Source: Magallana gigas (Eukaryota). Taken from it: 64,000 nt of DNA. Numbering within the stretch: the first letter of the stretch is position 1; each line of letters opens with the position of its first letter. Shown in pieces: positions 1-58,300 of the stretch. The stretch is taken from positions 558,001 through 622,000 of the forward strand of contig NC_088855.1 of NCBI RefSeq assembly GCF_963853765.1, read 5' to 3'. The position numbers were made by a program.

Positions 1-3000
1 ACACTATTTAGATGATTAAGGCAGCTACCGAATCCTATGCAAATACCGCTGTACCTAAGGGAAAGAGGGGAATCTCCACTTATGTCTGGGATTGCTGTAA
101 CAAAACACTGACCATGGCTCCGACCTGATAACCTGTCAATTATGGACCAGCTGCTGTTATGAATCTACATGAATGATGTTAGTCACTATGTATAGTAAGT
201 TTGACAGACATGCTAGTTAGTAAATGACTTTTACCAAGACCCCAGGGATCAAGGGATCACACGTCCCAACACATGCCTAGGGAGCATGTCCACACAAGGG
301 GATCATGCCCACATATGCCTAGGATTCATGCCTACATATGCCTAGGAATCATGCCCACTGTAGCAAACTCCTCCTACCTTTATTTGTTACTAGCTGTTTC
401 AGACCAGATTTACATAGCGTCCTCAAGAAAACGTGTTCTAACTGTGATTTTTCTGACTTGTTGAAGTGTGTCACATTGTTAGCAATACTGGTTTTGTTTA
501 CTAAGGTGAAATTTTCAGCCTTCACATTGGAAGGAACAGGAAATGTCAGAAGACCTGTTAATGATATGGAAGCAATGAGAGATACAGCGAGATAATTGTA
601 TATGTAATGAGACACCAGGATGTGTGAATTCAAAATAGATGAATGAGATGGTGTCGCTTCGTTTGAGCATAATTTGTTATATCCTTCAAGTTTACAACAT
701 GTAATGAAGTTACAGGGAATGAAAATCACTTCTCTGTAAGTGTCAATTCATTAGAAGCTTGTCCGCTATAACCATGTTTCACTGTAAATGTATTGAAGAG
801 AAAATAAAACATACAGTGAGATAAATGTATTCATAGTGAAATAAAAACAAATTCAATAGGATAGTTCTAGGTAGATACACATATGTGCAAATGCATTGGA
901 AACAATGGATATGTAAAGAGATGAATGAAATAGAGATTAGCATAGAAGTTGTTATCAACAAGTGGATACTGTGTAATTAATATTGTTACAATAAGACCTT
1001 CAGAGATTACAGTTTACAATAAAATGTAAAAGAACATTATAGATGAAGTGTGATATTTGTAAATGCAGCGTAAGTATTTTGAATGTACTATGTTTATACA
1101 AAATCAATAATCTATAATTATATGAAATCATCTTTAAAAAAAATTTCCATTGCACCCTGTTTAAGGACAAAAACCATTATAAAACGATTATCTTGCACGT
1201 CATTATTAATTTTAAAGAATGAACATAAGCCAATATTCATTCACACTACTCAGAGTAATGAAAAGTTGAGCGTTCTAGAGTCAAGTCTCTCTAAGACAAA
1301 CCCTAGAGTCAAACAGTGCCATCCACTCCTTCTCTCGTTAATTTCACAAGAAAAGTGCTAGGGGTTGGATCTCCCTTATTATTCAAACATCTATTCCATC
1401 ACAAGCAACATATTGACTTAAAATATTTGAGGTTGATAAATGTTCAAATTTGAAAGATAATAGTCTCTAAATATTTAAGGGCTCATGATTATGAACTACA
1501 ATAACAACAATAAAGAGACTATTTCCTATTTTGATTTCCTGATAAAATGTTCAAATTTGAGAGGTAATGGTCAATTAATATTTATACAATAGCCTTTGAT
1601 AAGAAACAACAGTACAGCAGACCGTTTCCTACCTTTGATTTCGTCTTTGTTCCCCAGTAAGGGACCCAGGGTCTCTGCCCAGATTTTATCTCCACTCACA
1701 TCAGCCATATCAGCCACGGTCAGGGGCCAGACTACGGTGGGGGGAGTCTGGTACAGCTAAAAAATGCGAAACAAATTGTGAGACTCAGATCAAATATTTG
1801 GATATCTCAAAGTTTTTAAACAGTTTCCGAAGTTTGACTGTACTTATCAAAATTGAACTTGCATATTTTATACAAGGTGAACATTTACATATAAGCAGGG
1901 TTCAAAATAAAATTTGTCATCTAATAGAAAGAGATATTTATTTGTCCCTACACCCAGGATTCTATCCAGTTGATACTGAAGTAAGTGTGCAATGTGGTAC
2001 TGCGATGGTCCTTTCTCATACAGAAATACAGCCCTCTTCATCGGTTTCTCCAGGTTTGCTAGCTCGACCTCAAAACGAGCCCCCACCGTAGAGGTCAACT
2101 GGAACTTGTCAACTCCTGTGTGTCTAGTGATGCGCGACATCTTTACTTTCAGTTTCCAATTGTCCTCTGACACACCTAACAAACAAAGAGCGACCACATG
2201 ATCATTTTCTACCTGATTTTTAAAAGTCATGGAAAGTTTTACTCAGAATGTTGCTAACTATATCCTTTTTTAACAGCATTGAGAATATATGGATTCGTAA
2301 GCATTGACACAATTTAATGAAATCATCAAATTAAACATAAAAATACATTTGTTCCTAAAACACATATTTTCAGGAAACTTCTTTCTATTGCTTTTCAAGA
2401 AAGTTCAAAATGAAGAGAAAACCTTTGAGTCCTAGATGAGTCATTAATCGCCTTTCTCTCGAGATTCTGGCCTCTGTGTTTGCATTCCACGTTCTAGCTC
2501 GGCACTCTGACACCATCATCTCCGCAGATGCTGTGGTCTGGGTGTTAACTGCATTTACTGGAACCCCCTGTACTGAGGCTGCAGACCGGATGAACAGTGT
2601 GGCTCCAACGTTAGGCTGAGGTTTCCCAGTGCCAGAATTTTTTGCCACCATCGTCATCAGAGCTGTGAATTTGAAAAAGGGAAACAACTCTTAAAGAAGC
2701 AAACTTTACAATCCTATTTTCTTTTTCAAAAACTTAGTTTACTCTTAAATTACAAGACTAAATTGTCAGGAAAATATTGCTTTACTCTATATATTATTCA
2801 AATCAATGAAAGGAAGGGATTTAATTTCTTTAAATTCTCAATAACATTTCTTGGAATATGTTCCAGAGAAGTTATTATTGAAAAAATAAAATGTATCAAA
2901 TGTAGTGGCTTAAAATAGAAAAAAAATATACTGATAAGTTAAGGTCAAAGGTCATAAAAGAAATTTACACTTTCTAAGCCCCAATGAATACAGAATAAAA

Positions 3001-55300: not shown

Positions 55301-58300
55301 TATCTTTTTAAGCAATGAAAACAGAATTATATAAAAAAAGATACCAACTACTAGTATTCCGGGATTCGAACGTAAACGGAAAGTTCAGTATTTGACTAAC
55401 CTGCGTAACCACTCGACAGAACTAGACTGAAAAAATGGGGAAAATTTAACACACCGTTCTTAAATTTTAGTTAGATTTGTAAAATTATGTCTCTGAGAAA
55501 CAAAAATCGGAAATTGCAGTTTTCAAGAAAATTTCTTGCTATTAATGTTAACGTCAAATCAATTTTGTTTCAGGTAAGCAGTGTTAAGCTACAATGAGAA
55601 TTCCCCGTTAACAAGCTTTAAAATTGTCACATTTTTCTGTGTTTAACCATCTTAAATTTCATTTCAGGATCGTTTTTAAAGTTTGATCGAAGTTTCCAGA
55701 TTTTATTTTACATCGCGTTATGTAAAACGTTAATTTGCTGGTAAAAATTATACGAAATAAAATAATATAATTAAAGATATCAATTATTTAGTATATTTAA
55801 TCGTACAATTGCTGAAAATTAGAACAATATTGGTAATAAGGAATCATTGTTTGGATATTATGAGGTAATAAAATTTACGGTCGGTGCGTGATCAAACCTT
55901 TCATAAGACCCTTAGATAAGGTCGTCCATCCGAATTTTTTCAGACCGGGAGCTACAGATCTGCAGCTAACCCTGACTATAGTGACCATTTTATATAATGC
56001 TCAAAGAATGATTCTGTATTCTTAAATTAAAACAAGCGATTTTTGATTAGGAATGTTTGAAAACTTGAAACGTTAATTTTGTTCACAAAAGATGTAGTAG
56101 TCTATCAAATAGCGTGGTGCAATGAGTTTTAAATGTTGGCGAGCCAAAACTAGTTAAGGATATGGAAATTGTTCATTAATGAAAGTCTGCCGAGTGAAAC
56201 GATTTCTAATTTTTAAATGTATATTCCGTATATATACAACAACCATACAGTAAAGCTACAGGGGCCGCATAGTTCTTTCTGCATAGAACAGCAGAGTTGA
56301 CGGAAAATGAATGACCACCGATCCAAGTGTTTCGGATTTCTGTCCCGTAACGCGCTAATTATCAGTGTGTTAATTGGTGTGGTGGTGGGCTTTGCCTTTG
56401 GTTTTGGACTGAGATCTGTAGAACCGTCCAGTGATGCCCTGACATGGATTGGTATGTACTAACTACGCAATGAAAACTTTCATGAACTTTTAGTTAATTG
56501 TTCGCAAAACTAAACAGTTTTAGAGCTTTTAGCGTTTTCTGAACCACCACACAGTAAATCTAAAAACATACTCTTTCCAGTCACACTGTCAATTGCAAAG
56601 ATGTAAATTGATAGAGACATACAGTGCCATTATCTATTGATTAATATTTAACATGAACACAAGGTTTTAATTGCTCTAGATTACGATTAAATGCATGAAG
56701 AACAGAACTCGAACTTTGGAACCGTGCAAACGAAAAAAGCATACTGTGTTGACGTGTAAACCCTGTCACCCTGTTTTAAAGGGGCATGGTCACGATTTTG
56801 TTCAAATTCTATTTTTCGGTTTTTATTATTTACAATGTTTTAGGAATGCATTTCTAATGATCAAATGGAATTTGAGAACAAATTGTAGAGTTAAAAGCAA
56901 GAGCTCACAATTCTTTGTCATGTAAACAATGCTCGTGCTCTGTTTTTGTTTACATATATTCAATATTTCAGAATCCTTTTCTAGCTAATTTGTCTATCTT
57001 CCTATTAATTTTAAGCATAAGTAAATATTTCCTAACATTTAGCACATTCAATTTAGGTCTAAAACTGGAATTTTCACTTTAACATCCAAAATGTAAACAA
57101 ACGCTTTGTTTACATTGCAAATAATTGTAGGCTATGTAACTCGTTTATAACTTTACGAAAGACTTCCAAATTTGATTGCTTATTAAAAATGCCTCACTGA
57201 AGCAGAGTAAACATTAAAGTCAGAAAAAATTGTGACCATGCCCCTTTAACAAGAAGTTGATAATTGAGACTTACTAATAATATAGGACATTTTTTTTGGT
57301 TATTTTGTTAAAAAAAATTATACTTACCAGCAGCAATTTTATTTTAAACCAAAAAGTAAAAGAACATGAAATTTTTTCTTTACATGAACTGGGTATTCTT
57401 TTGAAATTCTCCCCTGTATCTTTATGCGTTCAATGCAACTTGCGCTTTGGGTTTGGCAAACACATATGCTGCTATATGAACAAAATTTCATAATCAAATC
57501 AAAGGATTCAGAATCAGTTTCATATATTACGCAATTTACTTATAGACATAAAAATTTTAAGGATGATGAACACTGATGAGCACCATTAAGTTGTTTCTTA
57601 CACAGGTCTTCCCGGGGAGATTTTCATGCGTCTCCTGAAGATGCTGATTCTACCTCTTATTGTGGCCAGCATTATCACAGGTAAGAAGATCACACGTGTC
57701 TAAATCACAGGTAAGTAGAACACGTGTCTACATCACAGGTAAGTAAAACACGTGCCTAAATCACAGGTAAGTAGTGAACACGTGCCTAAATCAAAGGTAA
57801 GTAGAGAACACGTGTCTAAATCACAGGTAAGTAAAACACGTGCCTAAATCACAGGTAAGTAGAGAACATATGTCTAAATCACAGGTAAGTAGAGAAAATA
57901 TGTCTAAATCACAGGTATGTAGAACATGTGTCTGAATCACAGGTAAGTAGAGAACATATGTCTAAATCACAGGTAAGTAGAGAACATATGTCTAAATCAC
58001 AGGTAAGTAAAACACGTGCCTAAATCACAGGTAAGTAGAGAACATATGTCTAAATTACAGGTAAGTAGAGAACATATGTCTAAATCACAGGTATGTAGCA
58101 CACGTGTCTGAATCACAGGTAAATAGAGAACATATGTCTAAATCACAGGTAAGTAGAGAACATATGTCTTAATCACAGATAAATAGAGTATATCAGATAT
58201 AATGACCTCATCTATTGCTTGATGTTTGCTTTAAAGGGGCATGGTCACGATTTTGGTCAAAAATTATTTCCCCAATTTTAATGTTTTAATGTTTACAATG

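Follow-up and report, generated by a model that had tools for sequence, protein, structure and literature searches.

Do tandem repeats within introns settle without regard to the splice sites, or do they favour one end, and if so, what puts them there? This question is raised by a stretch of 64,000 bases of Magallana gigas (NCBI RefSeq assembly GCF_963853765.1, contig NC_088855.1, positions 558,001 to 622,000 of the forward strand; 0 N), referred to below as the window and numbered from its first base. The introns considered belong to six genes, encoding a PIP49/FAM69-like kinase, RPB11, a DUF4735 protein, SPT6, an ACAD11/AidB-like acyl-CoA dehydrogenase, and an SLC1A amino-acid transporter. 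A first-pass annotation had counted about 69 introns and listed 11 tandem duplications at, or just downstream of, 5' splice donors. Our gene models contain 64 complete introns and a further one that the window edge truncates, and all 11 duplications are present: eight are among the arrays that Tandem Repeats Finder (TRF) detected at donors of complete introns, one lies in the truncated intron, and two fall below TRF detection. The counts confirm that the positional bias and the asymmetry between donors and acceptors are real within the window and go beyond chance.

Tandem Arrays Start at 5' Splice Donors in Excess

TRF was run blind to the introns, and its 113 rows were merged into 90 arrays, 58 of which lie in the 64 introns; 26 of these 58 have a score of at least 50. 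Eleven of the 26 start within 25 nt of the donor of a complete intron, junction-spanning arrays included (offsets −40, −11, −7, −7, +4, +6, +8, +10, +16, +20, and +22). When each array was placed uniformly within its own intron, only 2.43 such starts were expected (Poisson-binomial P = 3.6e-8). Short introns, or a constrained zone on the acceptor side, were rejected as sole explanations, as the null operates within each intron and barring the last 40 nt of the intron moved the expectation only from 2.43 to 3.15 (P = 2.3e-7). At the other end, one array of the 26 ends within 25 nt of an acceptor, namely the array that fills SPT6 intron 7. This depletion is not significant (1 vs 2.43 expected, P = 0.2), and the asymmetry therefore consists in a donor-side excess.

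The excess was also observed at the other score cut-offs used (12 of 58 arrays donor-side at ≥30, 10 of 22 at ≥80, and 9 of 17 at ≥100; all P ≤ 2e-5). With exon overlap permitted (starts from −40), 11 arrays were found against 3.96 expected (P = 6e-5), while arrays wholly within introns were donor-side in 7 of 22 cases against 1.28 expected (P = 3e-5), with 0 at acceptors. Collapsing the arrays that belong to the same mobile element left 11 of 21 on the donor side, and restricting the set to periods above 3, which removes dinucleotide runs, left 8 of 17. A paired test over introns gave 11 with an array at the donor, 1 with an array at the acceptor, and 1 with both (p = 0.002). A second detector, based on ungapped self-matches with periods of 6–150 nt, returned 0 blocks in Markov-shuffled introns; 12 of its 25 blocks start at most 25 nt from a donor (2.57 expected, P = 6e-9), and 2 of the 25 end near an acceptor. 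Array starts reach a density of 4.2 per kb at 0 to +25, which is about 10 times the 0.43 per kb measured in the remaining intron sequence (P = 1e-5) and the 0.34 per kb of intergenic DNA (P = 2e-6). Within 200 nt of the donor, repeats cover 12–19% of intron sequence, compared with 0–6% at the acceptor end.

Such a cluster could be a peculiarity of the window or of SPT6, or a chance grouping noticed afterwards. The window was selected for the pattern, and 6 of the 11 cases lie in SPT6, where 6 of 11 arrays are donor-side against 1.85 expected. The excess nevertheless persists when SPT6 is left out (5 of 15 vs 0.58 expected), the P values lie between 1e-5 and 1e-8 across the nulls tried, and the gene models bear out the earlier statement that the donor-side arrays occur in five genes and on both strands. 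We consider an explanation of this kind quite unlikely.

Donor-Side Arrays Form Two Classes

Class A comprises five junction-spanning arrays, located in SPT6 introns 7, 11, and 19, ACAD11-like intron 10, and SLC1A intron 2, each of which duplicates the donor along with 7 to 40 nt of the preceding exon end. The first-pass annotation had correctly recognised these five (35.1, 39.0, 40.8, 51.0, and 57.7 kb) as copies of an exon end plus GT. Class B comprises seven TRF arrays and two extra cases (269-358 and 19281-19346), which begin just beyond the bases bound by U1, at +4 to +22. Decoy donors were scored with a weight matrix derived from 64 real donors, and a site was counted as a decoy when it scored at least the lower quartile of those donors. 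The arrays and dinucleotide runs at donors are as follows.

269..358, minus strand: 23-nt unit, 4.1 copies, at +19 of the donor with its G at 377, in the cut PIP49-like intron; no decoys.
3093..3179, minus strand: 40-nt unit, 2.2 copies, at +4 of donor 3183, PIP49-like intron 5 (521 nt).
19281..19346, minus strand: 28-nt direct repeat with a 10-nt spacer (period 38-39, about 1.7 copies), at +5/+6 of donor 19352, DUF4735 intron 3 (inferred model); below TRF detection, caught by the second detector.
31871..31921, minus strand: (CT)n run in the RNA sense, at +10 of donor 31931, SPT6 intron 26 (120 nt).
34027..34090, minus strand: 21-nt unit, 3.0 copies that are 100% alike, at +20 of donor 34110, SPT6 intron 20.
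35039..35157, minus strand: a single extra copy of GTAAGTT and the ~29 nt of exon before it, SPT6 intron 19; the authentic donor is at 35128 and the decoy 83 nt further downstream. The duplicate is decayed (about 1.4 copies), lies below TRF detection, and was recognised by eye and decoy score only.
38917..39015, minus strand: 29-nt unit, 2.2 copies, including 11 nt of exon and donor 39004, SPT6 intron 11; the TRF array is 38952-39015 (offset −11), and an older third copy of the exon end and donor stands at +87.
39754..39815, minus strand: (CT)n run in the RNA sense, at +8 of donor 39823, SPT6 intron 9 (171 nt).
40280..40858, minus strand: 71-nt unit, 8.2 copies, comprising the donor and the final 40 nt of the exon, SPT6 intron 7 (40818..40255); the array fills the intron to 25 nt before the acceptor, and its six decoys are identical to the authentic donor.
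45034..45260, minus strand: 31/65-nt unit, about 7 copies, at +6 of donor 45266, SPT6 intron 1 (1971 nt).
46917..47004, plus strand: 27-nt unit, 3.3 copies (98% matches), at +22 of donor 46895, ACAD11-like intron 3.
47948..47982, plus strand: (AG)n run, at +16 of donor 47932, ACAD11-like intron 5.
50999..53085, plus strand: 32-nt unit, 65 copies, beginning 7 nt inside the exon and including donor 51006, ACAD11-like intron 10.
57674..58188, plus strand: 30-nt unit, 17.6 copies (higher-order unit of 88 nt), beginning 7 nt inside the exon and including donor 57681, SLC1A intron 2.

The three dinucleotide runs reported earlier beside donors (31872, 39754, and 47948) are thus found at +10, +8, and +16. 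The only other such run within the 64 introns, at 27768-27819, lies deep in a 5.1-kb intron.

A separate duplication of possible relevance lies outside these introns. At 14844-14893, within a GC-richer stretch upstream of the 13.5-14.1 kb open reading frame (ORF), a 25-nt segment is perfectly duplicated in tandem (two copies). Each unit carries donor-like motifs on both strands, and the duplication could represent a donor-side array of a 5' untranslated region (UTR) exon.

The First Copy Is Spliced and the Others Are Decoys

The class A arrays carry 6, 2, and 2 decoys in SPT6 introns 7, 11, and 19, respectively, 38 in ACAD11-like intron 10 (array length 2,087 nt), and 16 in SLC1A intron 2 (515 nt), compared with a background of 1.2 per kb in other intron sequence. 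Several decoys are identical to the authentic donor or score above it, and in SLC1A most score above it. Splicing at a decoy would throw the message out of frame or lead it into a stop codon within 12-90 nt; in SLC1A intron 2, read-through would reach a stop after about 20 nt. At the class A junctions, database proteins continue from the first array copy directly into the following exon, with 0-1 mismatches. Two of these guide proteins come from transcript-sized contigs, and the SLC1A protein is from a genome annotation. Judged by these proteins, the upstream-most donor copy is the spliced copy in class A. The third, older copy of the exon end and donor in SPT6 intron 11 indicates that this donor has been duplicated more than once.

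Class B contains no decoys (best scores 6.0 or less), so that 7 of the 11 donor-side TRF arrays have none. The match between copies marks two class B arrays as very young (100% in 34027-34090 and 98% in 46917-47004). It is unlikely that class B represents aged class A arrays whose decoys have decayed, as these two arrays are 98-100% alike and bear no likeness to a donor. Microhomology at the youngest array amounts to a single base.

The decoys also bear on the idea that the arrays were retained because they help. Decoys might load extra U1 small nuclear ribonucleoprotein, which could improve splicing, guard against premature polyadenylation, or allow regulated unproductive splicing; alternatively, the repeats might act as intronic enhancers. 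The number of full-strength decoys kept in the SLC1A and ACAD11-like arrays, set against the background density, and the AT-rich composition of the introns are consistent with such a role. A helpful function would, however, have to operate in the 7 of 11 arrays that lack any decoy, through units that have nothing in common, and in several arrays that are very young (100% and 98% copy identity), and homogenisation within an array can keep decoys alike without selection. A functional origin of the pattern appears decidedly improbable to us.

Arrays at Donors Were Born Locally

None of the 10 donor-side units with a period of at least 10 (nine in complete introns plus 269-358) has a second copy in the window; the re-search spanned the 64 kb and left the three dinucleotide runs aside. 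The donor-side units are unrelated to one another, as the first-pass annotation had maintained, and share no common motif. A mobile-element origin would be revealed by a unit found elsewhere or by an array bounded by element ends, and these signs were found for interior arrays and not for donor-side units. In RPB11 intron 2, four arrays together make up the inverted ends (125 nt each) of an element of 1.1 kb (8489-9609); the ends, 8489-8613 and 9485-9609, are 97% complementary and are built of 16-nt and 31-nt subrepeats. From its sequence, the element looks like a mobile element of the foldback or miniature inverted-repeat transposable element type. Pairs of interior arrays in SPT6 intron 1 and in SLC1A intron 7 are likewise related to each other. 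Since the donor-side units lack other copies and several interior arrays are parts of larger elements, the locally born duplications are the donor-side ones.

These results bear on two further possibilities, that the arrays are cargo of mobile elements inserting beside donors, or that annotation has misplaced donors onto the first copy. The RPB11 intron 2 element demonstrates that interior arrays can arise as the inverted ends of a mobile element. The donor-side arrays, however, contain the gene's own exon end or begin in unique intron sequence, and we ruled out a mobile-element origin for them in view of the lack of a second unit copy in the window. Misplacement is countered by the protein alignments that fixed the donors, which show 0-5 mismatches over windows of up to ~50 residues around each junction, and by the GT-AG boundaries of all introns. 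Taken together, these two possibilities are very improbable indeed. Rolling reverse transcription of lariats was also considered and dropped, because the units contain exon sequence.

Other repeated sequences in the window include a cluster at 21803-22514, just upstream of the DUF4735 gene, in which one short element recurs in both orientations (copies of 58-122 nt, 83-97% alike) and appears as the same peptide in three ORFs. A satellite-like array at 28965-29369 (160-nt unit, 2.5 copies; partial copy at 28861-28910) lies deep in SPT6 intron 27.

The Acceptor Side Holds Two Weak Cases

The first-pass annotation had mentioned a single weak case beside an acceptor. This case is visible by eye, but a second weak one had been overlooked.

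36460..36555, minus strand: weak, degenerate repeat of ~30 nt ending at the acceptor of SPT6 intron 16; seen by eye, below both detectors.
4851..4965, minus strand: duplicate with a 79-nt period across the acceptor of PIP49-like intron 1, including 4 nt of exon.

The second case creates a decoy 3' splice site 79 nt upstream, and the downstream copy fits the protein. A symmetric hotspot at both exon edges that is masked at acceptors was not supported, as arrays do not pile up just upstream of the branch-site zone.

A Proposed Donor-Proximal Hotspot Combined With First-Donor Tolerance

What could place arrays at donors and keep acceptors almost free of them? We favour, at a probability of about 0.45, a donor-proximal duplication hotspot and a "first donor wins" tolerance acting jointly. 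The tolerance would serve as a filter. If the spliceosome picks the most upstream of equivalent 5' splice sites, duplication of an exon end with its donor would leave the mRNA unchanged and silent decoy donors in the intron, and constraint at the donor end would cover only ~6 intron bases. At the acceptor, the branch site, the pyrimidine tract, and the first-AG rule would turn the same event harmful, and a duplicate across the acceptor would put the wrong site first. A first-site-wins rule would account both for the existence of class A and for the sighting of only two weak acceptor cases. The hotspot itself would consist in a rate of tandem duplication (or of its retention) that is higher within ~25-40 nt of the donor than in other intron or intergenic DNA, and we take it to reflect a transcription- or splicing-coupled mutation process. 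Once seeded, arrays could expand by ordinary unequal exchange or slippage; higher-order repeat units are present in the arrays.

The filter might also act alone on duplications that arise evenly along genes, with selection clearing exons and acceptor-side signals. Splice signals constrain a much shorter zone at the donor end of an intron than at the acceptor end, in keeping with this simpler account, and the five junction-spanning arrays fit the tolerance downstream of the first-used donor that the first-pass annotation had invoked. The scanning result obtained with human F7 fits as well (PMC1557585, in its available text). Selection, however, can only remove, yet the 0 to +25 zone holds ~10 times as many starts per kb as deep intron or intergenic DNA does, and wholly intronic arrays remain over-represented (7 of 22 vs 1.28). 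Moreover, excluding the 3' 40 nt hardly shifts the expectation (3.15, P = 2e-7), and the pile-up upstream of the branch-site zone is lacking. The density at donors thus makes tolerance alone insufficient and calls for more production or for positive retention, and we regard the simpler account as unlikely.

Between production and retention, a mutational hotspot is preferred because the units share nothing on which function could act and some arrays are brand new. We infer its existence and kind by exclusion; the position-specific mutational process suggested in the first-pass annotation agrees with the need for extra production or retention and has the same standing. Two of the causes it had proposed fared less well. 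An R-loop-prone, G-rich sense strand lacks support, as the arrays have no common skew (positive in 6 of 11). A GC-to-AT boundary was likewise rejected, since the GC step occurs at both intron ends and cannot by itself explain the asymmetry. A deletion bias that shrinks the donor-side flank was also dropped, because the acceptor-side flanks are still hundreds of bases long.

Several points weigh against the combination of hotspot and tolerance. The data are one 64-kb window, picked out for this very pattern, which gives no genomic rate. The intron set leaves aside UTR introns and two small membrane-protein genes, and 6 of its 64 introns (2 in RPB11 and 4 in DUF4735) come from inferred models. 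No donor-specific DNA hotspot mechanism is established, and the sequence offers no clue to one: comparison within the window revealed no motif shared among donor-side units, the 6 of 11 arrays with positive strand skew do not make a common G-rich sense strand, and GC content steps from 0.48 to 0.36 at donors and from 0.31 to 0.48 at acceptors. Intergenic DNA may be non-neutral, which renders the density argument against pure tolerance suggestive and no proof. The silence of the decoys in this animal would follow by analogy with human F7.

Extended beyond the window, the hotspot might be tied to co-transcriptional recognition of the 5' splice site and might keep seeding minisatellites at the first intron bases in oysters, and perhaps in other lophotrochozoans, as a main route of 5' intron growth. 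First-donor splicing would tolerate them, and rows of perfect decoys would accumulate genome-wide. We offer this extension tentatively and consider it rather doubtful.

Comparison With Known Systems

Minisatellites that span a donor are already in print for single human genes. The 37-bp variable number tandem repeat (VNTR) in intron 7 of human F7 straddles the exon-intron boundary at its start (Borensztajn et al. 2006, PMC1557585), and experiments described in the available text of that paper showed a 5'-to-3' process of choice among identical 5' splice sites, in which the most upstream one wins and functional pseudo-sites remain silent. The 25-bp VNTR in intron 18 of human ABCA7 is described as being built like the F7 VNTR (De Roeck et al. 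2018, PMC5954066, available text). As far as these texts describe the two loci, they resemble ours in having a first unit that spans or starts at the boundary and an authentic donor followed by a row of identical pseudo-donors, in using the most upstream site, and in that splicing at a pseudo-site leaves a unit in the mRNA and puts it out of frame. The boundary-spanning first unit recurs in four TRF arrays, which begin 7 to 40 nt inside the exon, and in the decayed 35.1 kb duplicate, and is lacking in 7 of the 11 arrays (start +4 to +22). Downstream donors equal or close to the authentic one and use of the most upstream site both appear, from sequence comparison, to characterise class A. The human cases are, however, single loci in the texts available, whereas five such arrays occur here within 64 kb, accompanied by seven to nine arrays just past a donor without any pseudo-donor, which together indicate a bias over many introns.

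Simple repeats beside splice sites have also been described in teleosts and lamprey, where an (AC)m-(GT)n intron has AC repeats at its donor end and GT repeats at its acceptor end that pair in the RNA (Lin et al. 2016, PMC4691745, available text). The likeness lies in a lineage-specific enrichment of simple repeats beside splice sites, with individual instances poorly conserved; the difference lies in the single complementary dinucleotide pair of those introns, compared with the unrelated minisatellites or AG/CT runs found here. The runs in the window cannot be identified with such introns, as the three donor-side runs are AG/CT and no complementary run stands at the 3' end of the introns concerned. 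In Drosophila, tandem duplication of a segment with a proto-splice site was described as giving rise to new or shifted introns (Lehmann et al. 2010, PMC2891723, available text). That process resembles ours in the tandem copying of a segment with the exon-end/GT junction motif. According to the same text, coding sequence becomes intron or the intron moves, whereas in the window a conserved intron lengthens at its 5' end and the mRNA stays the same.

Within the open-access literature that was searched, supplements excluded, no account came to light of tandem repeats favouring donors across many introns or a whole genome, whether in molluscs or in other organisms. The available text of a Daphnia repeat survey does not give positions within introns, that of a Caenorhabditis elegans minisatellite paper deals with one repeat family only, and no donor/acceptor profile was found in that of a human catalogue of splicing repeats. 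The earlier remark that no description of such a genome-wide bias in molluscs was known agrees with these searches.

The interest of the finding depends mainly on a genome-wide count bearing the bias out. A genome-wide bias would tie splicing, or transcription through the donor, to local DNA mutation, a link so far unestablished, and would provide a concrete route by which introns lengthen at the 5' end. It would also supply hundreds of natural experiments, with up to dozens of consensus donors behind an authentic one, and such natural decoy rows would bear on the old question of how 5' splice sites are chosen. Gene predictors and variant callers would be prone to misplace donors inside such arrays.

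Gene Models and Neighbouring Sequence

Genes were found with Pfam searches of 144 stop-to-stop ORFs, followed by protein searches with single exons or ORFs, and are arranged as follows.

PIP49/FAM69-like kinase gene, 6.3 kb to beyond the window start, minus strand: 8 complete introns plus 1 cut by the window edge.
RPB11 gene, 7.8-10.2 kb, plus strand: 2 introns, inferred from alignments to solved Pol II structures (PDB).
DUF4735 gene, 18.6-21.5 kb, minus strand: 4 introns, inferred from ORFs, Pfam profile coordinates, GT-AG, and phase.
SPT6 gene, 24.0-45.5 kb, minus strand: 33 introns.
ACAD11/AidB-like acyl-CoA dehydrogenase gene, 46.0-54.0 kb, plus strand: 10 introns.
SLC1A amino-acid transporter gene, 56.3 kb to the window end, plus strand: 7 introns.

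Searches with ACAD11-like and SLC1A exons named Crassostrea and Saccostrea as the closest protein relatives. Four guide proteins were placed on the window by tblastn: P0001 for SPT6 (99% identity in the searched exon; from 5.6-kb transcript-sized contigs), P0121 for the ACAD11-like gene (86-100% per exon), P0142 for SLC1A (87-100% per exon), and P0157 for the PIP49-like gene (98%). Each junction was solved separately from GT/GC..AG, phase, and agreement with the protein. The 64 complete introns of the six genes are all GT..AG, with a median of 311 nt and a sum of 36,427 nt. The PIP49-like intron whose donor G lies at 377 extends past the window start and entered none of the statistics.

An apparent PIP49-like intron at 3704-3669 was dropped, as it proved to be a copy-number difference in a coding 18-nt repeat. 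The coding exon in question (3646-3701) carries this tandem repeat in frame, and the window is 36 nt (two units, 12 residues) longer there than the closest database protein, P0157.

Rfam returned 0 matches in the window. Two paralogous ORFs of ~200 residues, 29562-30185 (plus strand) and 13462-14058 (minus strand), share 47% identity over 178 residues and look like membrane proteins; Pfam assigned no family to either. The former is nested in the 5.1-kb SPT6 intron 27, on the opposite strand. A 20-nt unit is perfectly duplicated in tandem (2.1 copies) at 23850-23891, some 160 nt beyond the SPT6 stop codon, a position that probably falls in the 3' UTR.

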